From: Catajapyx aquilonaris
Taxonomy: Eukaryota
Reading direction: 5' to 3'
NCBI GenBank assembly: GCA_000934665.2
Contig: KZ539069.1
Location: forward strand, 1 to 34,476
Length of the DNA: 34,476 nt
Under the pieces are notes generated by a model. It saw nothing but the letters and a program-made list of their open reading frames with translations. It did not search any database and was not told the origin of the DNA. A program made the translations under genes and the position numbers. The first letter of the stretch is position 1, and every line of letters starts with the position of its first letter. Below, in pieces: positions 939-27,446 of the stretch.

Positions 939-1124
939 CTGAGTTTGACGAAACTCTTTCTGATGGTAGTGGAGGTGCCTGGACTCTATTTTCCTCGCCT
1001 TCTACTTCTGTCAGTTTCTTACTAGTCTTGGGCAGCAATGTTGAAGCTATGCCCTTTTCTGAACTGGACATCATGTCCACGTCGTTCAGTATATTGTCCA
1101 AGTCAGACCAAGAGCTCTTCGACC
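939..1124 (-). CDS. Gene 1 exon, module A (GSKSSWSDLDNILNDVD...RVQAPPLP)
   Basis: ttacag|GG ... CAG|gtaag; 186 nt; phase 1-1; open. Confidence 0.8.
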
Positions 1125-4100
1125 CTGTAAGTAATGCATTGAATTGATTTACATATTTACACCTGTACCAATAATTGGCGACTAATCTAATAGGCATGCT
1201 GATTACATATTTCTGAAGTACGGCTGATGGAAAATATCGTCCATTTGAGTAAATAATTGGCGCAACTGGATTTTGAGTCCGGTAATAACGTAAAAAAGAA
1301 AATGGATGAATAATGAACTGAAGGACGAACTTTCATGAAATTGCTTCCTACCTGGGTCAATCGCAGTAGTGACTAGTTCAGAAGCTGCCTGTTGGACTGG
1401 GGGTCCTTCTTCAGGAGGTGGTATTGCCTCGGGAAGCTCGGGCCTGGTCTCCATCGCCAGGGATGGAAGATGCAGATCGAATATTTGTGAAATTGCTCCA
1501 GATTCCAGCCCCCACTGAGCCTGATGTTCTCCTAAGTCTGTGCAGAGCAGTGTGCTTAGAGCTACATCTGTGAAAATTATTATTTCCCAGTTATAATCGA
1601 ATTAGTCACGTTGGAGTTAAATTGCTCCTATGCGCAGTGTGACGCTGTGGATGAATAATTATGGTATTGGTATCGGTTTATTTACCCAGTGGGCACGAGG
1701 CCCTTTTGGGGATGAATAATTATGCAGTAAGTTATAAAAATAATATCGGTGTTCACGCCAATTGCAACCAACACTGCTAGGACGTCTTCTCACCTTGGTT
1801 AATGGCATTGCCTTGATTATACATTGTCAGTTGAGTTGGTTGGCTACTTTCCCCACGTGTAGTTTCTTCATGAATCTCTCTCTTGCTTTTGTGTACCGCT
1901 TTCTTTTTCTTTTGTACTTTGCTGCTTTTAATGTGTGCCTGTTTCTTTTCGTGAATCTCTCTCTTGCTTTCGTGTACCGCCTTCGTTTTCTTTTGTATTT
2001 TGCTGCTTTTAATGTGTGCCTGTTTCCTTTTTGGGCGTTTCACGTTGTCTCCGATGAATCCAAAGCCAGAACCTGGGTCATGCTGCTGTCTCTCATGTGC
2101 CTCTATGCCGAAGCCTGGAACTTAAGTCATGATCACATCTTTACTCGTATCACACAATACTTCAGATAGAATGAAATTCTAAAATATTTTTGAAAGACGC
2201 ATCAGTGAAGAGTATAACTCAGTGCTAGAGAACGAGGGATAAAACCAGATTATAGATAATGTTAGAATATGCAGTACGGTAGTTGGATATATGTTACTGT
2301 TACTCATTTTAAAAGTAACCTGGGGAGAAGAGAGAACGTGGGCGTTTCCCCGGATAATATCCCTGCCTGCAGTATTATGTTACGTGTGACTTTTCACCTA
2401 CGTTCTTTCGCATATTCACCACTGTGGAAAGTTTCTTACCTATTCCTGGAAAAGTGTACTGGTCTTCTGTCTCTGTATTGATGGTCTTACGAGGTTTCTT
2501 GGTTGGAACCTTGCGTCTCGTTGCACGTTTCCTTTTCGACACCTGGTGTGGTTGGTGTATCATATCATTGTCCACATTGTCCAAGGGAGTTCCGAAATTA
2601 GACCAAGCATATTGATTGTTAAACCCTGAAAATAATGTAAGTTATTGCATTAATAATAACTCATCATTACTGTTACAGATGTTATTTTTGTTTATCACAG
2701 GCGTATTCAGAGGAGTCAGTATTCCAAAAAATTACAGTATGTTTCTGCCACCGTATTATGAGCTTCCTTGCTGCGAATATTCCTACCAATACTACTGACT
2801 CTGCGAGATAATTTTATTGTTGTTTCACGTGACTTTCCAACCTTTCTTACTGCTTCTTACCTGGATTCACTACAGGATATTGTTCTGCAAATCCATGATG
2901 ATATGATGACATATCATTCCCGTATTCCCCTGCTAGAAACCGCCTGTCATGGGTGTTTTCCACGTACAATTCCTGATCAGCCTCCTGCTTTTCTGGTAAG
3001 CTTCCACAGGTCATCATACCTAATTCTTCATCTGTAAATACAATAAGTCTTTTAATGTTATTATCGCACTATTCGAGATAGCATCAAATTAATATTACCA
3101 ATGTCGAAAACCACCCCTAAATAATTTCACACTACACAGCACTTCGTCTCACAGGATGAGTCAGGCTTGCAGGTGTTCCAGCCGCCAAGCCAGTGGCGAC
3201 GCTGACCAAAAACAAGTTTCAAAATAGGAGTGAAAAATGTCGCGACACAAATCGTTAACAAAGTAGATGACATTGCATGTTTGGGTTTGAAATATCTCAC
3301 TCACATAGTTTGGACATAGTTTTTGGCCAATCTAACTCGTACTGGCTGCTGAATGACCTGCAAATTCACTCACCCTGTGCGTTCTTAGTAGGTCTATAAG
3401 CCACATTAATCATGAAAGTAACAGGTAAGTTTTGTGAGCTAATTTTTTTTAAAAACCCTTCCCCATGCAGCTCCCTTGCGTCAGGTGTGCCGTGTGCTTG
3501 TATGCTTCCTCATAATAAAATAACTATTCCGGTACCTCACTCGCACAGATTCTTACCGAAATATATGGAAATTAGTGAGCTTTCTGGGGGTGGTGGCGGT
3601 GCTTGGCTTGTGTTTTCCACGTCTATCTGCTCCGCAAGTTGTGATCTGGTCTCTGATGGGAATGGTGGAGCTAAGTCCCTTTGGGATGACTGGTGTATTT
3701 CCGAATAGGCCATCGTGTCCCAGTTGTTCTGTAGACTGGGAAAGTCATAGGAATGGAATTGCATGCAGGGTTCTGCAAATAATGTATTGCATTAATTCAC
3801 TGTCACCAGTAACATTTATGCTGATTTCTAATCCCAAATTATTACACTTCCTTCCTGCGAGTAGCTGTATATCAACATGCGCTTGGCTTTACAAACGCGT
3901 GAGGGCACATATGGATGTTGCCCACTCTCATTTAGATTCTCACCTGGGACAATAATAGTATTAGTGGCACATTCTGAAGTTTCCTGTTGGATTGGTTGTC
4001 CATATGCTGTAAGTGTTGCTGCTTCCGGGAGCTTCTTCATTTCCTCCTTCGCTAGCGATGGAAGCTGAAGGTGGTGTGTTGTCTCCATCGATTCGAAATC

Positions 4101-7100
4101 AGTGTTCCTTCCTTCTAAGTGTGTAGAGGGAAGTATGCTTACATCTGGCTCTGTAAACATTGCGATTTCCACGTTATTACAGTATCAATAAAATGAAATA
4201 TTTGGATATACTGTGTCGTAAATATAATATCATATTACTGTCCCGCCAGTACACGCCACCGGGTGAGTCAGAACTCCAGCTAAATCCCCCCCCCCCCCAC
4301 ACACACCCAAGAGTACTACCTTAGGATCAAAACAGGTCTGAAATGTACAGAGGTTAGAAATGTCGAAAAGGTTGCTCGGGATAGCTTGTGTTAAGGTCGC
4401 TTCACAAACTCGGCGTTGCGAAAGCGGGGCGAAATGCCCGTTTTACAAACCCGGATTTGCGCGAGCGGGGCGTGCGGAGAGCGGAAAATTTGCGAAGGGC
4501 TATTCACAAATGCTGCGTGCGATGACCGAGCGCGGGCGTTGCGCTGGCGTCCAATCGGGTGGACTTTCTGCGTGCGATGAGCGGAAGGCCCACACGCCAC
4601 GCTTTCGCAACGCCGAGTTTGTGAAGCGGCCTTTAGACTTTAGGATTGTGCGTGTGCACATATTGTACTTGTACGTAAACGCCACACGTACTGATATGAT
4701 TTCCTACCTGCGTGAATCGCAGTAGTGACTAGTTCAGAAGCTGCCTGTTGGACTGGGGGTCCTTCTTCAGGAGGTGGTATTGCCTCGGGAAGCTCGGGCC
4801 TGGTCTCCATCGCCAGGGATGGAAGATGCAGATCTAACATTTGTGGAACTGCTCCAGATTCCAGTCCCCACTGAGCCTGCTGTTCTCCTAAGTCTGTGCA
4901 GAGGAGTGTGCTTCGATCTACATCTGTGAAAAGAATCATTTCCCAGTTATAATCAAATTAGTCACATTATACAACTTTTCTTGTTATGAAATTCTCCATA
5001 TACAGGAAAATGCTTTCTCAGTCGGAGTGAGTCAGATTGTAGGGTAAAAATAAGTTTCGGATCTCCATGTTTCCGAGCGAAGTACAGTACAGTACCAATA
5101 TTGTTGTTTTTAATGCTGAGTAAACATTTGAAACATTTTGATACACACGTTTGATGGGAGGTTTCAGGTTGATGGTCTTCAGGATTTTTTTACGGTACCT
5201 TTCCCCTCCTTGTCGAGAACTGCAGTGCAGTATAGGATAATGCATTTATAACAAAATAAGTTCTTACCTGAGGGTGAAGAAACACAATGAATTTCCGTCT
5301 GTGGTAGCGGTGTCTGGACTCTGTTTTTTTCCTTCTCCCCCTCTGGCAGGTGCTCACTAGACTTTTGCAACAATGTTGAAGCCATGTCCTCTTGGGGTAC
5401 CTGGAATTCTCCGGAATCGGTCACACAGATGACTTCGAGTTGTAACTTGTCCCATTCAGCCAAAAGCAATTTGTTCTTTGGTTCTGTAAGTAATGTATTG
5501 CATTAATCGATTGCACCTGCACCAAAAACACTTCATTCCGATCATGTAGCCTTGTGATGATGCACCCCATTATTGAGATACATTATACTTGTATAACATT
5601 GTTTCAAAATGAAAAATGAGTAAATAATTTACTCCGAATTGAACAATTTGACCAACGTGAACTTTCCAGTAGACTGGTAAGAATATGGGATGGCATCAAC
5701 CAACATTTCGAACTATAATGTTCACTGCCGATATTTTCTAATATTAAGCAATATAAGTTAGTTATCTTGAGGGTCCATCGTTATAAGTGTAACTTCTGGA
5801 CATGTTTGCCAAGCATAACAAAAGTGATTCTAGGCAAAACTCTGTCATACAAACCAAGTAAATTGTGGCGTATGTGAAAGTTGATAGGATATTTAAACTG
5901 CATATCAACAACTATAGTATATATACAACAAAAAGTAGCAACTTATGAATTTACTTGTCAATCAAGCAACCAGCTTGATTGACAAGTAAATTCATAAGTT
6001 GCTACTTTAAGGCCTTAAGGCCTTCTAAATGAGCCTCTAAATAAAGGGCTTCTTGGCTAGAAAAATTATTTACTATTGGTTTATTATTGTGCGAGAGTAC
6101 ATAGTGCTCTTGTAGTAGTGCATTAATCACCAAGAACATTAAAATGGCTTTTCACCTGAACTAGTAGCAGTAACGTGATCAGAGATTTCCTGTTGGACTG
6201 GGGCAATCTCGGAATTTGGTTTCTCCTCTGGAAGTTCACCCCATGTCTCATTCGCCAGGGATGGAAGATACAGATGTACCATTTCGTCCATTGGTCCAAA
6301 GTCTAGCCCGCATACAGCCTCATATTCTTCTCCTGAATCTGTAAAGATAACAATCTTCAGGTTTTTGTAGCATAAATCGCGCGGGCACAATGTTTAGTGG
6401 TCAGCTTTATATACGCACCTGAATAATAACGGGAATAATTTCACATTGTGCAATTTCTTGCAAGTATATAGGTCTACTAATATCACGTTAGTAAAATTTT
6501 CTAAATTATGAGCTTCATTACACAAGAATTACGGTGGTCACAATCATCGTATTTGAGGATTTACATCTGTGCTCTTCTTTAAAATAATTATCAATAACTC
6601 TACCTGCGCTCATCGCACTCGCAAAGTTTCTTACCGAAGTGTGAACCAGAGCAAAGGATTTCCGTCGGTTGTGGCGGTGTCTGGACTCTTTTACCTTCTA
6701 CTTCCTCTGGCAGCTTCTGGCTAGTCTTTGGCGGCAATGTTGAAACCAATGCCTCTTGTGGTATCTGGCATACTCCAGAATCGTCCACCATATCAACTTC
6801 GTCCAGTATCTTGCCCAATTCAGGACAAGACGAGTTGCTGTCGGGCTCTGTCCATAATGCATTCCATTAATTACTCGTAATTTCAACCACAGAGGCAATG
6901 ACATTGTTTAGAATTATTTACAGTGGGCCATAGAAACATTCAAAAATATTTGGGCAAGTAATTTACTCTAAATCAAACCATTTGTGCTACTTGACCTAAT
7001 TAGTATTGAGAAAATGAGATAATTATGATCTGGCAACGTTTCAGCATCGAATGTGAATAGTACCCGTTAGACTTCCTCTTGTGTAGTGAGGTTTTTGAGC

Positions 7101-7223
7101 ATCCTTAAGGTTACATCAAGAATTTGGGGACAATTCCGAATTACATCAGGGGAATGGGACAATTCCGAAGCAAGTACAATTGAGTAAATCGCAGTACCCA
7201 GTAGTAGTAATAATAATGATAAC

Positions 7224-7308
<85 letters not shown>

Positions 7309-10300
7309 TATAGGCCTACCCCGTGCTAGGCCTCCTTGGGCCTCTTAGGGGATCATCTTTTATTTAACTGACTTTAATCATTGCCTGCGCTGTGATGGAT
7401 TTTGATAGCGGGAGGAAACGGGAGAACCCCGAGAAAACCCACGCGAACACGGACAGAACCCATCGAAACTCTATCCACATAAGAATCCTCCGTCCGACCC
7501 GGGGATCGAACTCGGGACCTTAGAGGTGGAAGGCTGCGGCGCTAACCACTCCGCCACCGTGTTGCCCCTCGCAGTACCCAGTATGTGAAACTCTAATGCG
7601 ATGATTGTCGATACTCACCATGAGCTTCGGCGTCAGACATTTCATTTCTGGTCTGCTGTGCCAGGAGTGAAATCTGCATGATTGCAGTTTCTGCCACTAA
7701 TCTAAGTTGCAATAGTTCATCACCATCCTGCATGTCCTCTACCCTTTCAGGAGACATTGCGCCTAACTCGTGATCTGCAAAGGTCAAAAGCATACCATTA
7801 TTATAGTATTAGTTACTCTGGAGTAAAGTTTTTAAATATTAATGAGTAGACTACACGTCAGAATATTTTATAAATTAATAATATGATCACATAGGGTCTG
7901 TTTCTATAACTAGATAGATTATCCAGCCGCCGCGCCGCGTCGCCAGTGTACGAGTTTAGCCAAAACAATTCATTTGAAATGTATAGGATGATAATGACGA
8001 CGCAACTGTAAGAAGTATTCAACGTTAATCATTTGTGTGGGTCTACACGTGTAAGGCGAAGTTATCACGTCATACAGGAGAACAGTACTACGTTCTTACT
8101 GCTCTTCATGTAACTATTATGGTAACATATATGCGGTACGTGCTAAAAGTCATAGGTTTATTGTTCCTACTTCAATATTACTCGGGCATAGGTTCCAGGA
8201 AAAAAGAAAAGAATGATATTGATGCACGTGTCTTGGGGGACAGAAGGGGAACCAAGCCTGCAATATTGTGGCATTGACCTTCACTGCATGCGTCGGGGTA
8301 TGCAGACTGATAAGACATGTAAGACACTACTAATAAAATTTTTGCTTCATTCACTTGAGTCGTGCAGGAAAACAATGATTCTGGCAGTGTTGCCACATTA
8401 GTGGTGTTGACTGTTGCCTTACGGTAGGTACTTGTAATACTACTCCATGAAATGTGCAGGTTTGAGGAAATGTAATCTGACAATTTACAAGCCTCAATCG
8501 CGCACATTTACACTCATAAGCGTCTTAAAGCGACGATTTTATAATGACGACCTTCAAGGGAATGCTGATAATAAGATTGAAATGGGTGGAGGGGGGAAAG
8601 AGATGCATTTACGAACACGAGTGGTTGGTAAATGTTAATTTTTACATGATAAAGTAACTCACAAGAGTATAAGGCGAGCTTTCCGTATACAGTATTTAGG
8701 GAAGTGCACTTTGAAATGTACTGTATTGCTGCTGTAAATGCAGAAATACCCTTACAGTAAGTGCACTTTGTAATAATAATGAGGATCATTATAAATGTTC
8801 GTCTTTTCTTGCAATGACAGATATTCCGTAAGGTCGAAAGCAACATTACTTTTATTCACATTTGCCACCAATCATATGGAATTTTTCATTCCAAGTTCAT
8901 TCAAAGTGGCAAAATATCTGCTGAAGAGTGACATTTGCTGGATATGACGCCCCACTGTGCTCAAGAATATTTTTCAAAGTATGACCACCTTACGTAATGG
9001 CTGAGCTGAAAAGGCAATGAGTATATTGATACTTTGCTACTTGCTTTACTAACGTAAGGAAACATCAACAGCACTGATGTGGCAGCACTGCTAGAATCAT
9101 TGTCCTGCCTGATTCAAGTGAATAAAAGCAAAAATTTTATCCGTGACTTAGCGTACCAAACTGAGTCTTATCAGTCTGCATGCCCCGACGCGACGCGATT
9201 GTGCTACGAAGGTCAATGGTGCCACAATTTCAGATTCAGTGTTACCTATCTTCCTCCTCCCCGCATCCCCAAGTCCCACACCTCCAATGGCTGTACAAAT
9301 ATTTTTGTCAATAGCCATTGGGAGTCCAGAATGCGAATCTATAAAATATACACTTATATGACTCCTCACCTGGATTAATCGCAGTGACACGGTCTTGGGT
9401 ATTCTTTTCGACCACCGGCTGTCTGATCTCGGGATGTGCCTCTAGTTGATCATTCTTGGTCTCCTTCGCCGGTGATGGAAGTTGCAGATCGTACTTTTCC
9501 TCACCTAATTCAAAATCCAGCCCCCACTGAACCTTCTGTTCTTCTCCTACATCTGTAAATATCATAACCTTCATGTTTTTGTAGCATAAATCGTGCGGGC
9601 TTCATATTTATACATAAAATTTAATGCATGCATCAGTCTAAATAATCTCAGAAAAATGTCAAATTGTACAACTTCTTTCACATATACTTATATGATTCTT
9701 ATGAAACTTTCTAAATAAATTACAAACTTCCTTCCAGACGAAACTATTTTTCAACTGGAAGATTGTGACATTGATTTGAAATTGTGGTGGCGGTTTCAAG
9801 GGCAGACTTTGGTGTTACATTATTTTGTCACTCCTTCAATGAAATGCTGCTAGCTTATGAAACGCACCTTGTGTTGTACAGTATAGGCCTACATCCAGAA
9901 TAATAATAATAATAATAATAATTAATAATAATTAATAATTCATACCCCGTTATCAGCCTTTTTCGGCTCTTTAGGGGGAAAGTTTTCTTTTGCCTGGAAC
10001 TCTTTGCTTTCATTTTACTGCACTTTTTGGGATGGGATAGGGACGGAAGGAAGCGGCTGTGGCCTGTTAATTACGGAAACAACTCCGGAATTTCCCTGGA
10101 AGGACCGTGGGAAACCACAGAAAACCACGGTCAGAGTTGCCGGCCCCGGGATTCGAACCCAGGACCTCCCGATTAGCAGTCGGACGCCTTATCCACTATG
10201 CCAACCTGCTTCGGTACATCCAGAATAATTGTTGGGTGGAATGAGAAAGAGACATTATTTATAAGAAAAAGATAGTACACCTTAAAAATTCCAAGACATT

Positions 10301-13300
10301 CGGAATCTTTCTCTCGCACCTGTATGCTGCATGAGGAGAGTGTACAGTATATTGTGCTGGTTCAGACCTGCATTACTTTTCACATGAACAATCCCATCGG
10401 GGGTTTTCTCTATTTACGAGAGAGCGTCTGAATGTCTGGTTTCCTTATTCAGGGACTGTCCACGATCACAATCAAGGGTGTAACCACTTCGGTACTCCGG
10501 TGTACACCTGCGAGTGGTACTCCGAGGTACTCCTTATGTAACTGATTCTTTGGTACTCCTTGTTACTCCTTGAATTTGGTAGTCCAGTGTACACTTTACA
10601 GTCGAGTGGTTAACCCTTGGTCACAATCATCGTACATGAGCATTTATGTCTGTGCTGTTGCTTAAAATTATTATCAATCTCACCACCTGTGCTCATCGCA
10701 CTTGCAAAGTTTCTTACCGAAGTGTGAAGAAAAACAAATGATTTCTGTCGGTGGTGGAGGTGTCTGGACTCTGTTACCCTCTTCCTCCTCTAGCAGCTGC
10801 TGGCTAGCCTTTGGCGGCAATGTTGAAGCCAATGATTCTTGGGGTACCGGCCATACTCCCAGCTCGTCCACCATGTCAATTTCGTCAAGTACCTCGTCCA
10901 ATTCAGGACATGACCAGTTGCTCTCGAGCTCTGTCGCAATAATGCATTATATTAATTAATTTAAACCACACAGACAATGACATTGACTACAAAATTAATA
11001 ACGGTAGGCATGTATAGTGATTCGCCGGTGTCTTGATGGACCTCCAGTAACTTTAGCCAACTATGCCAAAGAGAGTGACAATATTATTAATAGTGTAAAT
11101 ATGACATGCATAATAAACATGCACCACGTACGGAACGGAACTTAAATCGGATTTTTAAAAATTACCCAGATTTGATTTCAGATGTCCATTGTTTCATGCA
11201 GTTGTAAAGACTAAGAGTCGACTATTATAACCAGGATATTTAAAAAAAATTATGAATGAAATGCAAAAGTGTTGATTAATAATGAAATACAAATTAATCC
11301 GACATTAACATGACACATACAAAAATATGACTGGCATAATCCCGACATCACTTTTCATATTAAGGTAGCCTCCAACCCTATATTTTATATGAGCTTTCAT
11401 TGTCTGTATGCCTATCTACAAAATAACGTCCTATGAACTGCAAAAATATTGTTGTCCAGAAAACTTCACATTTCACTAATACCACTGTATACACATATAA
11501 TTATTATGTTTTGTGGTGGAGAAAAAAGGAAAGAAAAATTATAACATACGTGAGCAGGATAAGTTTATGCCCTACTCAATGAAACCAATACAGACAAAGA
11601 ACTGGGTCACGTGCTTATTCAGATCCATTCATCAAGAAATTATTTTTCTACTAGTTCTATATTAATCTATCTGGTATTTATCATAGGTAGTTCTAAACTA
11701 CAGTGAAACGAAGCACTTTCAGCCTCGCTGAAGATTATGTAAGAACCTTCTCTATAAATTCTCCATACTTAATTACTTCATTCCTACTACACCAGCTATA
11801 TTTTCCTAACCAAAATGTTGACAATTATTTTATTAAGCGCAGCTTGTATGAACATGAGTTAAAGTTAACTACGGGGTTAGTGTGTGTTTAGTTAATTTGC
11901 TACCAAATATGTCTACCGCTAAGTTAAATTTCAGCCTTATTGTGTAGTGAAATTTTCGAGCATTCTTATGGTCACGCCAGAAATATTTTGGGACGTTTTC
12001 AAAGCAAATACAATCTAATTAATCGCAGTGAATATCTAATGCGATGACTGTCAATACTTACCATGTGCTACGGCGTCATGTGTTTCATTCCTTGTCCGCT
12101 CTGTCAGGAATGAAAGCTGCTTGATTTGGGTTTCTGCCTCTAATCTCAGGAAAAACAGCCCGTCAGTCTTGTTCCTGTCTTCTCTCTCAGGAGGCATTAT
12201 GGCCAAGTCTTCATCTGAAAAGGTCAGCATCATATCATTATTTTCGCATTAGTTACTCGAGTAAAATGAGTAGTTAAAAATATTGATACGTATTAGTCAT
12301 AATATTTTAGAAATAATGTGATATTATTCTACAGCATCACATAGGGTATATAAATTAAAGCAGATAAAATCATTAACAAAATGTTGGATGACAGCGCAGA
12401 AGTGCAGGCTCAAGTTGCTTTATCTGGAATAGCAAGGGAAGCTAATATTTTTGGATCATGGCTATTTGTTGATATTCTGAAAACAGAGATCTCTGATAAT
12501 AATCCATATACTATGCTAATGGTTTGTTTCGTTGAGTGAACCCATGATAGCAGCATTCTAATGTGAACACGAGTGACGGTTTTTTCCCTGCTCCTTGATT
12601 GCGCATCTTCAATATTGAGCAGGTAGGCTATATCGACATTCAACACACTAGCACGATTTCTTACAGGTGTAGAGAGAAGTGGTGCAGAAATCCGGCCGTG
12701 GTGATGTTATCTGGACACTCTCTTTTTCGCTGTCCTTATCTTCTGACACTGTCGATGGTATATTCTCTGGGAGTGTGCGATGTGTTGCATCATCGTCATC
12801 TTCCTCTATTGCATCCAGCAGCTTATCCAAATCATCGGAAGAGTTTATGGTGTAAATTTCTGAAAGTAATGCATCGCATTCATTATTTTCATGTTGTAGC
12901 AAGGAGATTGGTTTAAACGTATAATCATTGCCACCTGCGAATAATTCTGTTGATGGTGATAGATAATGTAGAATGCGCTCTGAAATAGCCTATTCTGAGT
13001 ACAAGTTCATGTAGAAATGAGACCAATAACGTTTCAGACTCTGTTACGCCCATTAATATTTGGCATATTTTAATCCTGTTTCCATGTCCAAACGTCTAGC
13101 ACGTGTTAAGAATTCTCCATAATTATACACTGCGGTGCTCATAGCATTTTATTCAGTCTATGCTGCGTGTGCTGAGCTTTGTGACAGTGCATATGGCCAC
13201 GAATCGTTAATCAACATGACTTGTCCATACCTTTGTCAAGAAGTTTTGCAGTGTCTTTTTGTGCGATTTTATGACATGATGGATGTTCATTCATTGGATG

Positions 13301-15024
13301 TTCTTTCGCTTCGGGTGACGGAGATCTGTGTGAGCTTGCTATGCCTGTTATCTGTCCTTGGCATGTTTCTTTCTCCAATTCAACATCCAGAACGACATCA
13401 TCCACTTCGTTCCTTTCTGGGTCTCTGAATTTCGTTGTATGTGAACTTTCTTCTGCAAGGATCAGAATCATTACGTACCTTCAAGTCGGACTGGAGTCAA
13501 AATATTTGCTCCATTTATTATATATGCCAGCTAATGCAGAATATCTAGAAATAATGGGATGCCTATTGTATATGACTCTGTGTCTTGTCTCTAATGTCTA
13601 AGGAAGCAGGGATTATAATATTTAAATACTCTACGAATAATTTGCCTTCATAATGAAAAGTAAATAATTATATGATTCGTTCCTACGTAAAATCCACTCA
13701 TTTATACCATGCATACCCTGTACATTACGTCATCCAATTCTTCATATACAGTTTTCATATCAATGTACTGTCTTGTATGCTCGTAGAGAGGCAAATCTTC
13801 AAAAACAAGCCAATAATACAGTATACTTTTATATCCCTGCTATTTCTGAGTGCTTGCTCATGTCAATCGCTGTAACATAATATTATATTACAGTACTTCT
13901 AGCGAGGATTCTTACCGGCGCAAGAAACATGGCTCTGGCTTTCAATCTGTGCCTGTGTTTGCACTGGATCCCGGTGACTGATCCCTTGCTGCATGAAGTC
14001 CATTGAAGGTGACTGGTGCATTCCCTCCAAGTCAAAATTTTCAAACTGTTCCAGTGTGGATAACATGTTTGAGAGGACGATATTACTGGGCTCTGAAAAC
14101 ATTGTAATGAAGCAAAGAGAGAGATTTGAAAAATAATATGCATAATAGGCAGGTTAATAACTGCTGATCATATACGAGCCCCTGCATCACAATCATTCGG
14201 CCACCAATGGAATACTAAGGTAACAGTCAAGGAAACCAATTAATTGAACATTTAGATCCCGATGTGTTTACTCGAACTCGATTAACCTATTCCATTTTAT
14301 CCAGCTTCATTGTTGCAGGTATCAACTTGGGCATTGTGTAACCTTGTATATTGCACAATGCCCATCGAATCTAAATTTCGACTAAAATGTGGCTCTATTC
14401 TGCATTTCAGGCCGTAAAATGCCCTTGAAAAACAAACTCACAGAATTATACCGTACCTAAAATATTATTGAATTGCATTACATGGCATTCAGTAAATGAG
14501 AGAACCGGGTATTTTATTACGGAATTCTAAAGTACGTAAGTAAGTTACTTCTTGGCTGCAGATTTTTAGTATTTTAAATGGCGAGTCATAATATGGTTTC
14601 TTTTCTGTATGATTGTGTGGACACAGAATGGACTGGTCTCCTTTTACATCAAATATCCCTGCCCACAATAATATTACGCATAAGTCTTCTCTCCTGTGAG
14701 CATGTGCATGCGAATCACTCTCCGCATTACCACAAACTCAAGCCCTCTTACCAATGTGTATACAAACAGGTTCACCCTCTTCCTCTGACGGACTCGAGGA
14801 ATTGCTGGACATGGCAGGGTCCTTCCTTGGAACATAGCGATTCGTCTCCTGCTGTACTGTTGAAGATCCGTCCTCCTGCGCCTCCACCTCCACGTGCTCG
14901 AAGGGTTCTGAAAGCAAATGCATAATATGGAATTCATCACTTTTTTGTTGTGTAGCAATGGATTTGTACCAACGTGAAGTTTCACAGTGAACTCGTTGGA
15001 GCTTCTGGCCCTGGTCAGTCTCAT
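939..15024 (-). CDS. Gene 1 (overall span): multi-exon gene for an uncharacterised acidic/Pro-rich repetitive protein of about 1,280 aa; 3' end not resolved
   Basis: 19 internal exons each bounded by AG/GT, each a multiple of 3 nt, all phase 1-1 and open in the same frame; they fall into paralogous module types. Confidence 0.8.
1352..1567 (-). CDS. Gene 1 exon, module B (DLHLPSLAMETRPELPEA)
   Basis: ttcacag|AT ... CAG|gtagg; 216 nt; about 95% identical to 4708-4923. Confidence 0.85.
1794..2114 (-). CDS. Gene 1 exon, Lys-rich basic exon with an internal 27-aa tandem duplication
   Basis: ttccag|GC ... AAG|gtgag; 321 nt; open; KQAHIKSSKxQKKxKAVHxSKREIHE occurs twice. Confidence 0.75.
2440..2625 (-). 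CDS. Gene 1 exon, diverged module A with basic cluster (SKRKRATRRKVPTKKPRK)
   Basis: tttcag|GG ... TAG|gtaag; 186 nt; open. Confidence 0.75.
2861..3031 (-). CDS. Gene 1 exon (DEELGMMTCGSLPEKQEAD...VNP), not in the ORF track
   Basis: tttacag|AT ... CAG|gtaag; 171 nt; open in phase 1. Confidence 0.7.
3557..3772 (-). CDS. Gene 1 exon, module A (…TSQAPPPPPES…)
   Basis: ttgcag|AA ... TCG|gtaag; 216 nt; open. Confidence 0.8.
3944..4150 (-). CDS. Gene 1 exon, module B (HLQLPSLAKEE…LPEA)
   Basis: tttacag|AG ... CAG|gtgag; 207 nt; open. Confidence 0.8.
4394..4632. mobile_element. GC-rich PIF/Harbinger (Tourist-like) MITE
   Basis: TIRs of about 33 bp (AGGTCGCTTCACAAACTCGGCGTTGCGAAAGCG / CGCTTTCGCAACGCCGAGTTTGTGAAGCGGCCT) flanked by TTA on both sides (4391-4393, 4633-4635). 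Confidence 0.8.
4708..4923 (-). CDS. Gene 1 exon, module B (recent copy of 1352-1567)
   Basis: ttcacag|AT ... CAG|gtagg; 216 nt; open. Confidence 0.85.
5268..5483 (-). CDS. Gene 1 exon, module A
   Basis: ttacag|AA ... CAG|gtaag; 216 nt; QVPQEDMASTLL…NRVQTPLP. Confidence 0.85.
5932..6008. repeat. Perfect intronic hairpin, 36-bp arms, 5-nt loop
   Basis: 5932-5967 is the exact reverse complement of 5973-6008; loop AACCA. Confidence 0.9.
6156..6338 (-). CDS. Gene 1 exon, module B
   Basis: tttacag|AT ... CAG|gtgaa; 183 nt; HLYLPSLANET. Confidence 0.8.
6635..6847 (-). CDS. Gene 1 exon, module A
   Basis: gacag|AG ... TCG|gtaag; 213 nt; ELGKILDEVD…RVQTPP; paralogue of 10718-10930. Confidence 0.85.
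7204..7568 (-). mobile_element. tRNA-derived SINE, family 2, V-domain-like core, (TTA)n tail, 15-bp TSD
   Basis: A box TGGCGGAGTGG, B box GAGTTCGATCC; core CCGTGTTCGCGTGGGTTTTCTCGGGGTTCTCCCGTTTCCTCCC; TSD TCGCAGTACCCAGTA at 7189-7203 and 7569-7583. Confidence 0.85.
7619..7774 (-). CDS. Gene 1 exon, module H (LRLVAETAIMQISLLAQQTRNE)
   Basis: ttgcag|AT ... ATG|gtgag; 156 nt; paralogue of 12062-12214. Confidence 0.8.
8230..9275. mobile_element. Old non-autonomous DNA element with long degenerate terminal inverted repeats (ends approximate)
   Basis: About 8230-8430 is an imperfect reverse complement of about 9050-9275, e.g. CGTCGGGGTATGCAGACTGATAAGAC vs GTCTTATCAGTCTGCATGCCCCGACG. Confidence 0.6.
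9370..9552 (-). CDS. Gene 1 exon, module B
   Basis: tttacag|AT ... CAG|gtgag; 183 nt; QWGLDFE…DLQLPSPAKET. Confidence 0.85.
9905..10215 (-). mobile_element. tRNA-derived SINE, family 1, 14-bp TSD
   Basis: B box GGGTTCGAATCCC; (TTA)n tail; TSD ACATCCAGAATAAT at 9891-9904 and 10216-10229. Confidence 0.9.
10473..10619. mobile_element. 147-bp hAT-like MITE
   Basis: TIRs CAAGGGT(G)TAACCACT / AGTGGTTAACCCTTG; 8-bp TSD ATCACAAT/GTCACAAT; the paralogous intron near 6537 lacks it. Confidence 0.75.
10718..10930 (-). CDS. Gene 1 exon, module A
   Basis: gacag|AG ... TCG|gtaag; 213 nt; ELDEVLDEID…RVQTPPPP. Confidence 0.85.
12062..12214 (-). CDS. Gene 1 exon, module H
   Basis: tttcag|AT ... ATG|gtaag; 153 nt; open. 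Confidence 0.8.
12665..12859 (-). CDS. Gene 1 exon, diverged module A (DDLDKLLDAIEE)
   Basis: tttcag|AA ... CCT|gtaag; 195 nt; open. Confidence 0.75.
13231..13452 (-). CDS. Gene 1 exon
   Basis: ttgcag|AA ... AAG|gtatg; 222 nt; open. Confidence 0.75.
13916..14092 (-). CDS. Gene 1 exon, diverged module A
   Basis: tttcag|AG ... CCG|gtaag; 177 nt; open. Confidence 0.75.
14752..14907 (-). CDS. Gene 1 exon (EPFEHVEVEAQEDGSSTVQQE…)
   Basis: tttcag|AA ... TTG|gtaag; 156 nt; open. Confidence 0.75.
14970..15024 (-). CDS. Candidate first coding exon of gene 1 (MRLTRARSSNEFTVKLHV)
   Basis: ATG at 15024; 55 nt ends in phase 1 at TTG|gtacaa and gives a 62-nt intron in frame with the next exon; the donor is weak. 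Confidence 0.45.
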
Positions 15025-17273: not shown

Positions 17274-18757
17274 CTAGGAAAGGAACGCGCTCAATGTGTG
17301 CAGGAAAGCCATTCAAAACAATGCAGACTTTTTACCCTTCCTTCAACCACTCCAATAAGTCATTAGTGAGATGGCTTACCTTGACATGATCAAAGTCACA
17401 AATCCCCATCTTGATAAGCTTGCATGCATCCACCCACATAAGCTTCCTACCATCGACGAAGTTTGCACGGAAAGTTTGCTGATGGGAAGAAAGATCACCA
17501 TTATCATATAACTTATGTTATTATCATGATGATGATCATCATCATCATCAAGCTCACCACATATTGAGGGTATCCAACGCTTTTGAGCCACATAGAAACT
17601 CTGGTTATGTTCCAGAACATGCAAGCTGGAACACATGGGTCTGGCACATGGTCTTCATCTTTTCGCTGGTTATGGGCCACTGACCAGAAGCCCTGGGACA
17701 CGTCACTGTTTCATGCAAACAAGTGAGGAGATAAATGAACAGGAGTGCTAGTAGTGGCAGCTTGTCAAGTACAATGTTGAGCCCAGATCAAAGCCAGAAG
17801 CATGCAGGGATGTTGGACCCAATATGTACCGTGTGTACATCTTTGATTGATAATCAGCAACAATATTAATGATAAATGGCATGAAGGGCTCGGTCTGGGT
17901 TGGACCCAGTACACACAAAGTCCAAATATTCTCCTAAATAATAACAAGTGCAGCGCTGAATTCCACCCTCACAAATGTAAACAGCCCTGTGGTGACCCTG
18001 TGTGCGTCCCAAGCTTGAGCCCCGAAAACATATTGCAGGTTTCTGGACTATATATCTTCTGAATCTACCCGACCAGCTGAGTCGAATGACACTCTTTGTA
18101 GGTTGAGAAACATTTCCTTCAAAAGTTATCAAACTGTGAAATTGCAAGTAATAAACAATCAATAAATGAAAATGGTTTGGTGATTTTAGTTCAATTCAGC
18201 TTTAGCGAGTTGGCCGCTTATTGTGGGTTGGGTAATCGAAACATTAAATGTTTGGCTTGTGGCGCCGCAGGCCAACGAACGTTATTGTGGCTTTTCAGAG
18301 CCACTTCACGCAACATCTACATCTACGGCGTCACAAGACGGCAATGTTGCGGACGCACATAGAGTACGTTGTTAATATACAAATGACCTTTAAAATTACC
18401 ATGACGATTCTATCACGCAACAAACGAAGTAATCAGTTTCAACAAAGGAACACTCGTTTATTTTCATTTATAACCGAAGCAGTTTGGAAGAGAGGAAATG
18501 GTGTCCGACTGCTAATCGGGAGGTCCTGGGATCAAATCCCGGGGCCGGCAACTCTGACCGTGGTTTTCTGTGGTTTCCCACGGTCCTTCCAGGAAAATTC
18601 CGGAGTTGCTTCCGTAATTAATAGGCCACAGCCGCTTCCTTCCGCCCCTATCCTATCCCAAAGAGCCCAGTAAAATGAAAAGCAAAGAGTTCCAGGCAAA
18701 AACAAACTTCCCCCCTAAAGTGCCGATGGCTGATAACGGGGTATGAATTATTATTAA

Positions 18758-18805
<48 letters not shown>

Positions 18806-19158
18806 TATTATTATTATTATTATTAATTGATTGTTTCAGTATTACTTACTATTTCAAAATTCTATAACTTTTCTCCCCCCCCCCCTACGAATAGTGTCAT
18901 TCGACTCAGCTCGTCGAGTAGATGCGATAAATATAATATAGAAACCTGCAATATTATTGCGGGACTGCCCTTGCTGCCGTGAGGGAATTACGCAGTTTCA
19001 CTACTTCCACTGTACCTTTTTCCGGCACGCTCCACTTTTAATTTCTCCATCAGCATCGGCGGATCACACCTGCTGCTGTCCAGAAGGGAATCGATCAATG
19101 TACTCTTGACTCTTCCATAGTTCTTCTTGGAACCCTTCTTTCGCACTGCGACCTCCAT
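16743..19158 (-). CDS. SAMD15: SAM-domain protein, SAMD15-like (overall span; about 306 aa if the candidate exon 1 is right)
   Basis: Spliced translation FWNITRVSMWLKSVGYPQYV|QTFRANFVDGRKLMWVDACKLIKMGICDFDHVK|DLAQAVRFL…RSIALP…TFL fits the SAM consensus (W…V..WL..GY.QY…F….DG..L….L..MGI) plus the RSI.LP motif recalled for the SAMD15 family. Confidence 0.8.
17380..17478 (-). CDS. SAMD15: SAMD15-like exon (SAM core)
   Basis: catcag|CAA ... AAG|gtaagc; 99 nt; phase 0-0. Confidence 0.85.
17558..17705 (-). CDS. SAMD15: SAMD15-like exon (SAM N-terminal helices)
   Basis: Pyrimidine tract + aaacag|T ... GTG|gtgagc; phase 2-0. Confidence 0.8.
18010..18973. mobile_element. Degenerate DNA element with terminal inverted repeats, interrupted by a SINE (ends approximate)
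   Basis: 18030-18094 (ATATTGCAGGTTTCT…CAGCTGAGTCGAATGACACT) is an imperfect reverse complement of 18893-18955. Confidence 0.6.
18473..18824 (+). mobile_element. tRNA-derived SINE, family 1, (TTA)n tail
   Basis: Reverse complement of 9905-10215 with high similarity. Confidence 0.9.
19016..19158 (-). CDS. Candidate first coding exon of the SAMD15-like gene (MEVAVRKKGSKKNYGRVKST…)
   Basis: ACGATGG start context; 143 nt open; AAG|gtacag gives the phase 2 required by the next exon (alternative phase-2 donor at 19070). Confidence 0.55.
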
Positions 19159-20092: not shown

Positions 20093-20502
20093 CAGCGGTT
20101 CTCAAACTGTGCCCCCCCCCAGGGGGGGGGGGNNNNNNNNNNNNNNNNNNNNNNNNNNNNNNNNNNNNNNNNNNNNNNNNNNNNNNNNNNNNNNNNNNNN
20201 NNNNNNNNNNNNNNNNNNNNNNNNNNNNNNNNNNNNNNNNNNNNNNNNNNNNNNNNNNNNNNNNNNNNNNNNNNNNNNNNNNNNNNNNNNNNNNNNNNNN
20301 NNNNNNNNNNNNNNNNNNNNNNNNNNNNNNNNNNNNNNNNNNNNNNNNNNNNNNNNNNNNNNNNNNNNNNNNNNNNNNNNNNNNNNNNNNNNNNNNNNNN
20401 NNNNNNNNNNNNNNNNNNNNNNNNNNNNNNNNNNNNNNNNNNNNNNNNNNNNNNNNNNNNNNNNNNNNNGGGGGGCGATGTGGCAAAGTTTGAGAACCGC
20501 TG
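20093..20502. mobile_element. hAT (Charlie-like) MITE spanning the assembly gap
   Basis: 16-bp TIRs CAGCGGTTCTCAAACT / AGTTTGAGAACCGCTG; 8-bp flanks TATAAACA / CCTAAACA (6/8). Confidence 0.75.
20133..20469. other. Assembly gap (N run)
   Basis: Ns between poly-C/poly-G runs. Confidence 1.
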
Positions 20503-20952: not shown

Positions 20953-22924
20953 CTAAGAGGAAACCAAACTATCATCATTCGCGTAGACAACTGTTGAGCT
21001 AGCGCCATATCTCCTCCTTATTTTTACACTTGTGTTGCACTAACGATTTACCTCGCGAGAGACTGTCCTGAAATTCTGATTCACCCTGTATGCAGCATCC
21101 GTTCCTTCAACACTGCCTTGTTTGACGGCTAATTATTTTCCATATACTAAAACTATCAGCATTTCTGAGAACTTGCTATTGTGTAAGTGCACATGTTGAC
21201 GCGAACAATGACATTGCACGCGACCCGCTCCCCACAATCGGACCCCTACTTACCTTGGGCATTAGCAATGTATTTATTTGCGAATTCCTTCCGAGAATGT
21301 TGTCGATCATCTCCGAGCTCGACTGCCTCGCATACCTCGCTCCTAGTTTCATGTGATTCTTTCAGAAGTTCAAAGTCAAAAATATCCTCAAGACCAAGAC
21401 CTCCAGTGTCTAAGCAGTTCTGGACTGCTTGAAGCATCTCCTTCATATCATCATCTGCAAAGATCGAATTTATCCCTTTATTAGCCTATTGACTAAGGTC
21501 AAATGAATTGATACAGGCTCATGCGTAACTGACTGACGTCTAGGAGAATTTTTTGCACTTCAGTTGTTAAAGTGTAACGGGCATTCATCAACCATATTTA
21601 AGACACTTTGCAATCATGCACAAATTCTCACCCAGAACATTATCTTCGTCTCCCATCCATTGCGTGTGGTCACTGGTAACCACCTCTCCCTCTGGAACAT
21701 CATGACTGGTCGTTTGCGGCGAGATAAAAGGCGTATTCTGATCTTGGGAGGATTGTTGTACGACAGGTTCTTCTTCCGTTAACCAGTCAATGTCTGATGG
21801 CCAATTGGCTTCAAGGCATCGGTCTGAAAATTAGTAATGGCGTTCATTAACTTATCGATTCAACAACCATATTGGTTTCTTATCATAAGAGTATGCAGAT
21901 AAATTGATCAGTCAGCAATCAGCATGCATCACATGGTTGCAAAATTAAGAGATCTAATGAAGGCCTCGGTGCCCTAACCCACCAAATGACACAAATAAAT
22001 TGAGTTTCGCACATCACTTCCTTATAATACACTCAAGTATTCAATAAAATACACTGACATGGTGCAGTTTCTGCCATCGGTCACTGAGAAATCAAATTAT
22101 ATTTACCACGCTTGCATTGATGCGCCAATTCTTACCTATATCTAGCAAATCATATTCATCCTCCACCTGATCTGTTTGGTCATTGGCGGTCTCCTTGCCC
22201 TCTGCAATCAGGTCACTGGTCTCTTGAAGAGCGCTAGATTGCTCGTTCTGACCTGAGGATGATTGTTGTACCACCGGTCCTTTATCCTTCTCCATCTCTT
22301 GCATTAACTTTTCCAGAGCTGACCAATTGTTGTCATTGTCCGTACCTGAAAATGAGAGATCGAGTGCACTGACTTACCGATTCATCAACTACTGTACATT
22401 GTTTTCCTATCATTAGTGTATGCTGATCAACTGAACTCTAACTATTCAATATAGCTCGGATATTAACTCGCATTTTTAGTTGCGATCTATATTATAGTAA
22501 AAGTTTAAAATATAATATACGTAATTTTTTTGCAATAATAAAGTGGAAAATGTCTTCCGGAAGAGAAGTGTAACATTATGCTCTTGTAATTGTCGTTTTA
22601 CCAGAGAAAAAATAAAAACACTGAGAAGGGTTGAAAATTCTAAGTGATGCAGTTATTTTTCGCAGCACTGCACTGTAGAATGTTCCACAGTGATTTAAAT
22701 TGATAACAAATAAACCGACATATATTCACAAAATAATGTACACTCTATTTGTAGTGTCTACTCAGGTAGACATATCACCTGTTGAAAAATTCTTATTTAT
22801 AGAACATTCTTCTACACAGGTAAATTACTGCATACTTTCTTATAGCCACACGTAGCTTACTGGTCATGGACTCACCTTCTTCTAGTAAACATCCCAAACC
22901 TGGTAATAAGGACAGAGGATCCAT
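20921..22924 (-). CDS. Gene 3 (overall span): uncharacterised acidic protein of about 227 aa built from diverged copies of the gene 1 exon modules
   Basis: Exons 22924-22876, 22345-22136, 21823-21632, 21454-21254, 20952-20921 total 684 nt, all phase 1, open to TAA. Confidence 0.7.
21254..21454 (-). CDS. Gene 3 exon, related to modules B/H (ETRSEVCEA)
   Basis: ttgcag|AT ... AAG|gtaagt; 201 nt; open. Confidence 0.75.
21632..21823 (-). CDS. Gene 3 exon, module A-like (NWPSDIDWLTEEEPVVQQSS), not in the ORF track
   Basis: tttcag|AC ... TGG|gtgag; 192 nt; open; paralogue of 22136-22345. Confidence 0.75.
22136..22345 (-). CDS. Gene 3 exon, module A-like (NWSALEKLMQEME…PVVQQSS)
   Basis: tttcag|GT ... 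TAG|gtaag; 210 nt; open. Confidence 0.8.
22876..22924 (-). CDS. Gene 3 candidate first coding segment (MDPLSLLPGLGCLLEE); the exon extends to an acceptor at 23032
   Basis: CAAAAATGG insect-type start context; AAG|gtgagt phase 1; the frame is also open upstream to 23032, so the true start may lie further 5'. Confidence 0.6.
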
Positions 22925-25746: not shown

Positions 25747-25849
25747 TTCAATTATTCAAGAGTAGTGTAGGGAAAGAAGCTATGGATTGCTTATCCCAGC
25801 AACCAGCAGTTTAAAAGAAAAGCAACAAGCATGACAGAATTATGAGAAT

Positions 25850-25923
25850 ATGAAAAATAAAAACCCATTGGAAGTCAACAATCGCAGCCGATTGTTGACT
25901 TCCAATGGGTTTTTATTTTTCAT
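25850..25923. repeat. Perfect hairpin, 35-bp arms, 4-nt loop, inside a looser outer stem (about 25775-25954)
   Basis: 25850-25884 is the exact reverse complement of 25889-25923. Confidence 0.9.
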
Positions 25924-26050
25924 CTTGTTGCTAGAGTAAACAATCCACAGCTTTTATTTCCCTCCCCCTGCTTCGATTGCAGCCAATAACAATGTATACT
26001 ATGTTGTATAATTGACTGGTATTTAATTTCAGGTCTCACTTGATGAAACC

Positions 26051-26189
26051 CTGGGGAATGAAATGTCATAAGTTAAGTCAAATTTTTGTCGTAACCGGTC
26101 GTAACCATAGTTAGTTAATTATTGTAACTATGGTGGCGATCGGTTACGACGAAAATTTGACTTACGACATTTTATGAATCCACCCCCTG
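26051..26189. mobile_element. Small palindromic MITE-like element
   Basis: Imperfect inverted repeat AAATGTC…AAGTCAAATTTT..TCGTAACCG.TCG..ACCATAGTTA vs its complement; ends CTGGGG…CCCCTG. Confidence 0.55.
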
Positions 26190-26871
26190 GCCTGGATTGC
26201 ATCAAAGTTTCAAGTTTTAATAACAGCTATTTCACCGTTATTGATTGTCAAGACAACTCCATGGACAACAGTGGCAAGTGACAAGCATGGAACCAGAGGA
26301 AACAAGTCATTTATTTCCATGTTGAGGATACATGGCCATGGTGGTCTTCAGAAAGTGACATAGGAATATTGTGTGTGTGTGTGTCTATATGTAAGCAACA
26401 ACTAGTGCTTGAAAGGATAACTCATTAATAAAGGTAATCAAAATTATCATGTGCCACTATGTTAGTTTATTTCATAGATAAGGGGGGAAAATTAACTTCA
26501 AAAACTGTGTGTGTGTGAGTGAAAAAGTTTTCCTTATTTCTAAAGCAAAACAAGTCAGTCCAGAAGTGAAAGAATGGGCACAGAGCTGTCCTGTTTAGAA
26601 GATGAGTGTACAGTACGAGTATCTACAAAGTGTAATAAGGTTCACTATTGCTTGTCCCACTTCTTTAATCTGCTTGACTGGAATGTTTAATGGGACTGGG
26701 TCAGCATCAATCCATATTATTGCACTTTGCAGATAAAGCTTTTTGCTAGGACATGCAGAAAGGCTGTCATATTGTTAAAGTCATTGCACTTGCACTTTGC
26801 ACATCCCCTCCTACCTACCCTAATCGTGGACCAACTAAATAATTGTAACATTATACACATGGTTCCAAATA

Positions 26872-27446
26872 CAGGGTGATCCAACTTTATCGCCCCAACA
26901 GTTATTGGAAAAATCGCGTAAGCTGCTACTTTTAAGCTGCTACTTGCTAAGAGTTACTTTCTCGAGTATCTGAAATAGCAGCTGCTGATATTAGGTCCAA
27001 TGCCTATGCACCAATTAATGACCTATTTATTGACCCAACCGGGTCTGTCCGGTTCGACGGATTAGCCCTCTGATTGGCAGCTAGTGACCTCATCTGAATC
27101 CCTCCAGCGAACACCAAAATGGGCCATTTTGAAGGCCAACACATGAATCAGTTTGGAGATGAGAAAATAAAAGAGATGATGACACCTTTCCATTTCAGGG
27201 TCGCAACAGTTCGCATCCCACCCCTCGCGATTGACCCATTTGGCCAGTCACAACCCGGTAGACAACCTGTTTCCCACGGGTGACCCTTTTTTCCCTCATT
27301 AATTGGTACATGGACATTAGACCTAATATCAGCAGGTGCTATTCCAAATACTCGAGAAAGTAACTCTTAGCAAGTAACTGCTTAAAAAGTAGCAGCTTAC
27401 GCGATTTTTCCAATAATTGTTGGGGCGATAAAGTTGGATCACCCTG
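26872..27446. mobile_element. Tc1/mariner-type MITE with TIRs of about 150 bp
   Basis: TA|CAGGGTGATCCAACTTTATCGCCCCAACA … TGTTGGGGCGATAAAGTTGGATCACCCTG|TA. Confidence 0.9.

Follow-up and report, generated by a model that had tools for sequence, protein, structure and literature searches.

We analysed a stretch of 34,476 nucleotides from Catajapyx aquilonaris (contig KZ539069.1 of assembly GCA_000934665.2), referred to below as the window. Its minus strand carries a long chain of predicted exons, whose boundaries were set by a generic AG/GT scan within minus-strand open frames, using a simple hand-made score and no trained splice model. Between 939 and 14907 the scan delimits 19 exons with AG and GT borders, and three further exons of the same phase (U1-U3) are found upstream of E02, at 21254-22345 (-). 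All 22 exons are multiples of three in length, ranging from 153 to 321 nt, and all are of phase 1-1, their first base being codon position 2 and their last base codon position 1. A preliminary description of the locus had proposed about 19 phase 1-1 exons of 153-321 nt, each a multiple of three, and the independent splice scan agrees with it.

Joined end to end, the 22 exons make a stop-free sequence of 4389 nt (1462 codons). At the stop density of the introns this length should contain about 86 stops, and the two alternative frames of the same concatenate contain 60 and 97. The pattern is not one of chance: phase 1-1 accounts for 64 of the 116 open AG..GT candidates on the minus strand but for 2 among the 27 of the plus strand.

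Exon chain and gene extent

The upstream part of the chain is formed by U1 (22136-22345, 210 nt, net charge -14, acceptor score 4.0, donor score 7.0) and U2 (21632-21823, 192 nt), which make up family U (BLASTP E 3e-8 between the two). The donor-side flank of U2 can be aligned with those of U1 and of the A-type exons described below. The next exon, U3 (21254-21454, 201 nt), is acidic, single copy and without homologue, and has a donor score of 7.5. Three more single-copy exons begin the main part of the chain, namely E02 (14752-14907, 156 nt) and, both from the splice scan, E03 (13916-14092, 177 nt) and E04 (13231-13452, 222 nt). Alternative acceptors that score about as well exist for E02 and E05, the one of E02 lying at 15078 and scoring the same.

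The preliminary description had confined the gene to 939..15024, and these limits do not stand. The last exon, E19, is closed by a strong donor at 939, so the gene runs on past this position; it exceeds the proposed span, with exons further upstream, and its 3' side is truncated by the window edge. A start codon at ATG 15024 is doubtful. The frame of this ATG differs from that of the exon at 14907-14752, and the splice scan found no donor scoring at least 5 downstream of it in the same frame.

One connection of the chain, from U3 to E02, spans 6.3 kb with an assembly gap (20133-20469). The same interval contains a SINE, and the scan detected no phase 1-1 exon candidate between the two exons. 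An interval of this kind is compatible with two genes, one consisting of E02-E19 and starting at ATG 15024, its first coding exon being 55 nt long and the intron after it 62 nt, the other an upstream paralogue represented by U1-U3; the ATG frame could indeed exit in phase 1. Such a division is opposed by the lack of an in-frame donor scoring at least 5 after the ATG and by the donor of U3, which is the strongest of the set and is followed by no stop-bearing terminal exon. The U exons also match the rest of the chain in strand, phase, acidity and A-type donor-flank pattern. We therefore regard two genes as unlikely, while giving the idea some real weight, and treat the 22 exons as parts of one gene in what follows.

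Exon families, their copies and their splice flanks

An all-against-all BLASTP comparison places 15 of the 22 exons in four families, with six members in A, five in B, and two each in H and U. From E05 onwards the exon types follow the order A H A B H A B A B B A H A K B A. Alignment and BLASTP both confirm the modules A, B and H that the preliminary description had picked out by their recurring motifs. Family A comprises E07 (10718-10930, 213 nt), E10 (6635-6847, 213 nt), E12 (5268-5483, 216 nt), E19 (939-1124, 186 nt), the diverged E15 (3557-3772, 216 nt) and E05 (12665-12859, 195 nt), a diverged A-type exon that carries the A-type acceptor motif and matches E07 and E10 by BLASTP at E 3e-4 to 9e-4. 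Family B is composed of E08 (9370-9552, 183 nt), E11 (6156-6338, 183 nt), E13 (4708-4923, 216 nt), E14 (3944-4150, 207 nt) and E18 (1352-1567, 216 nt), and family H of E06 (12062-12214, 153 nt) and E09 (7619-7774, 156 nt). With the exception of E05, these assignments rest on both alignment and BLASTP.

Three exons near the downstream end fall outside the families. E16 (2861-3031, 171 nt) is H-like by its H-type acceptor flank and a weak alignment, with no BLASTP match to H. E17 (2440-2625, 186 nt) is A-like by its A-type acceptor motif, with no BLASTP match to A; it contains a Lys/Arg run and has a net charge of +5. The third, EK (1794-2114, 321 nt), is a probable exon, Lys-rich and of net charge +14, with a mediocre acceptor (score 3.25) and a donor scoring 7.5. 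It holds an internal 81-nt tandem duplication (Tandem Repeats Finder: period 81, 2 copies, 92% matches).

Two copies of the three-exon block H-A-B are present, E06-E07-E08 and E09-E10-E11, with pairwise protein identities of 54, 68 and 39% by BLASTP. The series E16-E17-(EK)-E18 is a third, diverged copy. Within each family the exon lengths differ by multiples of three, and all 15 family exons are open. The gene has grown by tandem duplication of exons. The earlier proposal of growth through frame-symmetric cassettes is borne out by the four families, the twofold H-A-B block and the copied splice flanks.

The similarity between copies is confined to short stretches. E13 and E18 share a tract of 268 bp that is 94% identical, and E10 and E07 one of 374 bp that is 83% identical, both with sharp edges; more generally, similarity between copies ends abruptly 7-100 nt beyond the exons. 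Tracts with such edges fit short-tract gene conversion, or copying in very small units, better than they fit block duplication followed by decay. From the shape of these tracts, the copies have probably been homogenised by short-tract gene conversion.

Sharp limits just outside the exons are also what short mobile units would leave, and the introns are rich in SINEs. The units could accordingly be copies of an interspersed repeat, that is, exonised pieces of a transposable element and not tandem exon duplicates. Against this, the module copies all share strand and frame and follow each other in regular order, and none of the matches beyond the exon chain in a tblastn search of the whole 34-kb window with the 22 exons is convincing (the best of them at E 0.004). 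The units have no terminal repeats, and splice signals are rightly placed in them. An origin from interspersed repeats is very improbable, and we retain tandem duplication of exons as the source of the copies.

Exon copies bring their own splice-signal flanks. In the 50 nt upstream of the exons, mean identity within a type is 0.60-0.65, against 0.47-0.55 for shuffled sequences, while at 51-150 nt upstream it is at the shuffled level. This agrees with the preliminary description, which had noted that the acceptor-side intron is kept by module type. The acceptor flanks have 16 invariant columns among seven A-type sequences, 18 among five B-type and 23 among three H-type. These type-specific elements, which extend over 25-40 nt from branch point to acceptor, outlast peptide similarity. 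In the A-type element the 16 invariant positions are kept across seven exons whose peptides are at 14-25% identity. Splice signals that are better kept than the peptides make an unusual pattern of constraint and suggest that inclusion of a cassette, and perhaps its regulation, outweighs its exact sequence.

Constraint on the peptides is harder to see. In 13 pairs of paralogous exons dN/dS is high (0.54-1.57), and in 5 of the 13 it is near or above 1. The intron downstream of E10 resembles that downstream of E07 at 85 of 100 nt, a likeness equal to that of the exons themselves. Together, the high dN/dS and the equal likeness of intron and exon indicate that, among the younger pairs, the peptide is under weak purifying selection or none that can be detected. 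A high paralogue dN/dS is, however, usual for disordered repeats and is no measure of constraint among orthologues.

The dN/dS values, along with homologue searches that are blank in every library, would suit a decaying or silent exon array, either a former repeat gene or surplus cassettes from which selection has gone and which are largely absent from mRNA. In such an array the reading frames should have eroded: a substitution-only drift simulation at 30-40% divergence leaves 5-22% of exons open and so predicts stops in most of them. Instead, none of the 22 exons has lost its open frame, its divisibility by three or either splice dinucleotide, and the branch-point-to-acceptor elements are kept despite the low peptide identity. 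A decaying array is decidedly improbable, and the predicted exons would be expressed.

Since every exon is frame-neutral, any subset is predicted to be skippable without a frameshift, and combinatorial splice isoforms, as proposed in the preliminary description, could result. One possibility is that the type-specific acceptor elements act as regulatory handles by which cassettes are taken in or left out by class, the valency of the protein being set via splicing and the likeness within a class being maintained by gene conversion. Such a role is quite unlikely on present grounds; if true, one lineage-restricted gene would give rise to proteins that differ in how many A, B and H motifs they carry.

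The predicted protein and searches for relatives

The protein predicted from the 22 joined exons is strongly acidic, with 281 Asp and Glu residues against 118 Lys and Arg. A charge-hydropathy plot, which is a crude measure of disorder, places 19 of the 22 exons on the disordered side and leaves E13, E14 and E18 on the ordered side. In module A a short acidic helix precedes a proline-rich motif, and AlphaFold2 models the module, in E07, as a single short helix with a pTM of 0.17. Module H, modelled in E06, is a single long helix over residues 11-49 (pLDDT 81.7). Module B is a linear motif centred on L-P-S-L-A-x-E. Judging by these models and the plot, the protein would be mostly disordered in vivo.

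The two basic exons E17 and EK form an NLS-like pair, as judged by eye, and the predicted product would most likely be nuclear. Secreted modular proteins likewise tend to be built from phase 1-1 exons, which makes an acidic matrix protein that is secreted another candidate. SUMO-interaction-like motifs were considered in module A and rejected, as two are seen where 1.25 are expected and 37% of shuffles reach the observed number.

Searches for relatives were blank across several libraries. For 20 exons, hmmscan against Pfam with E up to 1 gave no match at E 0.01, the best being unrelated families at E 0.02-0.2; for a second set from the window, 14 open frames and exons that include EK and U2, it gave one sub-threshold match. 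A profile of module B had no match among 1.84 billion cluster representatives. Neither the module A profile, nor exon U3, nor the module H profile had a match to longer proteins in a word-indexed library, and blanks of this sort weigh little. Against PDB sequences (E up to 10), the module A profile had no match and the module B profile had four, all unrelated (E 0.95-1.8). The ESM Atlas returned no usable match for E09 and E13. For module B, no related locus was found among viral contigs or metagenome contigs; the one pattern match among genome contigs, 14 residues long and in a bacterial MAG, was taken as chance. The mosquito gene MOSN was considered and set aside, its design being unrelated as far as the part of its source drawn on here goes. 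As judged from the libraries searched, the gene is lineage-restricted and has no detectable relatives. Within the same reach, the orphan-like character that the preliminary description had given the gene holds up across Pfam, PDB, the cluster representatives, the word-indexed library and the Atlas; so does its statement that no folded domain is recognisable, Pfam being blank and modules A and H being modelled as single helices.

A diverged member of a known disordered multi-module family built from class 1,1 exons, for example a calpastatin-like inhibitor, is another conceivable reading. To our knowledge, the calpastatin family is found in vertebrates only. Three short elements recur at this locus, two of them acidic and helical, in the manner of such inhibitors. 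Yet Pfam does not list the calpain-inhibitor family for any of the 20 exons even with E raised to 1, no PDB chain of calpastatin is matched by the A or B profile (E up to 10), and the exons differ in size and the elements in their order. Membership of such a family is extremely improbable.

We consider it fairly probable that the locus, with at least 22 exons between 22345 and 939, is a large internal part of a minus-strand, animal-type gene that grew by exon duplication and encodes an acidic, mostly disordered repeat protein. Single exons and the three-exon H-A-B block would have been duplicated in tandem, repeatedly, the signal from branch point to acceptor travelling with each exon copy. 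Later, some of the copies would have been made alike again by gene conversion over short tracts centred on exons. The product may serve as a multivalent acidic scaffold or adaptor that repeats the H, A and B elements, in which case its working units would be short motifs and its strength would depend on their copy number.

If expressed, the gene offers a clean example of a protein without relatives that reached more than 1400 residues by the copying of motif-bearing, frame-neutral exons. The locus would then be suited to the study of exon birth, of gene conversion between exons and of how splicing might control motif valency. An unexpressed array would be a mere relic and ordinary genome texture.

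Comparison with known systems

Clusters of mutually exclusive exons, such as those of Dscam, are composed of tandem homologous exons with conserved intronic elements beside each copy, and each transcript takes up a single exon of the cluster. The present gene resembles them in having tandemly duplicated homologous exons with adjoining conserved intronic elements. It differs in that its exon types are interleaved, E13 and E14 (216 and 207 nt) being the sole adjacent pair of one type, and in that lengths vary within a type. In addition, all its exons are frame-neutral, so that full inclusion is possible. We considered a mutually exclusive cluster for this locus and rejected it, as such a cluster has homologues of equal length side by side and the exons here do not.

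Calpastatin is closer in design. It is encoded by class 1,1 exons and has four repeated domains of three short subdomains each, according to the part of the account used here (Schad, Kalmar and Tompa 2013, PMC3632108). As described there, it shares with the predicted protein a disordered, acidic character, phase 1-1 exons and a repeat unit of three short elements, which in calpastatin act as binding motifs and not as folds. There is no sequence relation between the two, and the present gene has larger exons (153-321 nt), each holding a single element. The likeness to calpastatin is one of design only.

The wider group to which calpastatin belongs in that account offers the best parallel. From the portion of the paper drawn on here, genes of mostly disordered proteins have symmetric exons and internal tandem duplication, with human examples, and the regions they encode are mostly disordered, over 70% by prediction (PMC3632108). 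The present gene agrees with them in its single symmetric phase class (22 of 22 exons of phase 1-1) and in internal tandem duplication of exons (15 of 22 exons in families). Its exons correspond to short, functional-looking modules; as to disorder, most of them lie on the disordered side of the crude plot and module A has a low pTM, but module H is modelled as a confident helix. Those genes are human and have known families, whereas the gene described here has no detectable relatives. Relative to the same portion of the description, the retention of splice flanks by module type is a feature of the present gene. Copying of frame-neutral exons is a known route of growth for genes of this kind.

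The exon array and the extent of the gene

Between about 900 and 15100, the minus-strand stop-to-stop frames encode acidic peptides of a few recurring types, and inspection with flanks showed that every such open frame has both an acceptor (...YAG) and a donor (G|GTRAG). Exon boundaries were set by a generic scan for AG/GT dinucleotides at the correct codon position within open frames, with acceptors scored simply by their pyrimidines and donors by agreement with the consensus. A first scan returned 18 exons (14907 to 939, minus strand), and a wider scan added the Lys-rich exon EK (321 nt, 2114-1794, minus strand). The resulting 19 exons of 153-321 nt match the count and size range of the preliminary description, and its claim of phase 1-1 exons holds throughout: every exon has a length divisible by 3, with its first base in the second codon position and its last base in the first. 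On the minus strand, 64 of 116 open AG..GT candidates are phase 1-1, compared with 2 of 27 on the plus strand under the identical filter. Joined by coordinates with three upstream exons, the 22 exons give 4389 nt (about 1462 codons) and no stops in the coding offset; the other two offsets contain 60 and 97, and about 86 are expected across 1463 codons at intron stop density. The frame-symmetric exon array is confirmed, beyond chance.

The limits initially proposed for the gene, 939..15024, need revision. The ATG at 15024 is a doubtful start, as its frame differs from that of E02, the 5' exon of the array, and no donor scoring at least 5 follows it. At the other end, the last exon closes with a donor (939), which places the 3' end beyond the window. 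The gene is also larger upstream, where the splice scan detected three exons of the same kind, U1 (22345-22136), U2 (21823-21632) and U3 (21454-21254), all on the minus strand and phase 1-1, with strong donors and net charges of -9 to -14. U1 and U2 are paralogous (BLASTP, E 3e-8), and on the donor side the flanks of both can be aligned to A-type flanks. The simplest reading is that U1-U3 and E02-E19 form one gene, with a 6.3-kb intron holding an assembly gap and a SINE. That U1-U3 instead belong to a separate paralogue upstream is unlikely, given that U3 has a donor at its end, with no terminal exon after it. The gap (20133-20469, 337 N) lies in this presumed U3-E02 intron and could hide an exon; a further single N is at 28167.

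A tblastn search of the window found no extra or dead copies, save for a marginal A-like stretch (30919-30800, minus strand) resembling the start of exon E12 (E 0.004, 40% over 40 residues). The resemblance lies in the first half of a minus-strand open frame of about 60 codons (30800-30964, initiating ATG at 30964), which may be a first exon located far upstream, or else a dead copy, and is a lead only.

The texture of the window is eukaryotic: G+C is about 40%, and it holds trinucleotide microsatellites and SINE copies of tRNA origin, besides the one assembly gap. The SINE (about 320 bp) is present in three copies (99-418, 9899-10216, and 18473-18808; 76-90% identity), each adjoined by an AAT/TAA microsatellite and two of them intronic. 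In the copy at 9899-10216 the head is tRNA-like, with a tRNA call (tRNA-Ser, gct) at 10138-10209 (Rfam, ARAGORN). Seven hairpin-forming, self-reverse-complement stretches of 77-326 bp and 66-94% identity (5932-6008, 25847-25926, 26074-26164, 27911-28045, 30284-30507, 31083-31292, and 34153-34476, the last running off the window end) may be MITE-like elements. Two inverted repeat pairs, whose arms are separated by a few hundred bases, probably mark the ends of small transposons (8290-8427 and 9049-9191, 79% identity, within the E08-E09 intron; 26869-27021 and 27296-27449, 93% identity).

Exon families and tracts of similarity

All-against-all BLASTP of the exon peptides defines four families: A (E05, E07, E10, E12, E15, and E19), B (E08, E11, E13, E14, and E18), H (E06 and E09) and U (U1 and U2). 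The E16 and E17 peptides have no BLASTP match; their acceptor flanks are H-type and A-type, respectively. From 5' to 3', the types run A H A B H A B A B B A H A K B A. An H-A-B block occurs twice with matching partners (E06/E09, 54% identity; E07/E10, 68%; E08/E11, 39%), which indicates that a three-exon block was duplicated, and E16-E17-(EK)-E18 is a third, diverged copy. EK carries an in-frame 81-nt tandem duplication (1867-2031, two copies, 92% matches), and repeat growth is thus seen within a single exon and not just from one exon to the next. The families and the block duplication support the earlier proposal of growth by exon accretion, to which we add the larger gene and conversion-like tracts between copies.

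DNA similarity between copies is limited to the exon plus 7-100 nt. The tract shared by E18 and E13 (1345-1612 versus 4701-4968) spans 268 bp at 94% identity, with 100 of 100 bases identical mid-tract. Its edges are sharp, 45 nt before the acceptor and 7 nt past the donor, and on both sides a single 25-nt bin suffices for identity to fall to random. This looks like recent short-tract gene conversion. The E07/E10 tract (374 bp, 83% identical) also ends abruptly, and the first 100 nt of intron past the donor match at 85 of 100 positions, the same likeness as the exon. A plain block duplication does not fit this pair, given a synonymous divergence of 0.28 and an intron that is not recognisable throughout. 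We infer that exon-centred gene conversion over short tracts came after older duplications; the alternative is that very small units were copied.

Acceptor-side elements and the predicted product

Paralogous exons have dN/dS of 0.54-1.57 (13 pairs), and constraint on the peptides is therefore weak. The frame is strongly constrained, as all 22 exons are open, within-family length differences are all multiples of 3, and just 5-22% of exons remain open in a substitution-only drift simulation at 30-40% divergence. The strongest conservation lies directly upstream of the exons. Within types, the 50 nt preceding the acceptor have a mean identity of 0.60-0.65 versus 0.47-0.55 when shuffled, and the next 100 nt upstream are at the shuffled level. 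Invariant columns number 16 among seven aligned A-type flanks, 18 among five B-type and 23 among three H-type. Among the aligned A-type flanks are those of E05 and E17, two exons with peptide identities to E07 of only 23% and 14%, respectively. The conserved stretches extend from a CTAAT- or TTAAT-like site through to the AG, with no AG between, and from their general appearance we take them to be a putative unit of branch point, tract and acceptor. These type-specific acceptor elements are kept better than the peptides encoded after them.

B-type and H-type flanks (e.g., 4924-4983 and 12215-12274) have in common a core that contains ATAATAA and follows the CTAAT-like site. This suggests a common origin of the two exon types, or of their splice units, although their peptides do not align.

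The joined product contains 281 D+E versus 118 K+R, and 19 of the 22 exons plot on the disordered side in charge-hydropathy space. AlphaFold2 models module A as coil apart from one short acidic helix (pLDDT 64.6, pTM 0.17), and module H as a single helix (residues 11-49, pLDDT 81.7). The end of module A is a proline-rich motif, the core L-x-L-P-S-x-A-x-E of module B is invariant, E17 has a Lys/Arg run and EK has a net charge of +14. These features point to a multivalent scaffold of short motifs, probably nuclear. The predicted product is missing its N-terminus, and it may instead be a secreted acidic protein.

Comparison with known systems

No relative was found by a Pfam search of the exons and other open frames of the window, among PDB sequences, with a module B profile against 1.84 billion cluster representatives, in three word-indexed searches among longer proteins, in two Atlas look-ups or in three related-loci scans, apart from one chance pattern match in the latter. 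The gene was previously described as orphan-looking, which is borne out within these libraries; "orphan" would here mean having no relative detectable in them, their coverage of the relevant animal lineage being uncertain.

Calpastatin is cited by Schad et al. (PMC3632108) as having class 1,1 exons, full disorder and repeated three-part domains, a design that it would have in common with this gene. The gene nevertheless fails every sequence test for the calpastatin family, and membership is rejected. It would be a further example of an already known kind, the symmetric-exon duplication genes of disordered proteins, and acceptor elements that outlast their peptides are its sole feature beyond the ordinary.
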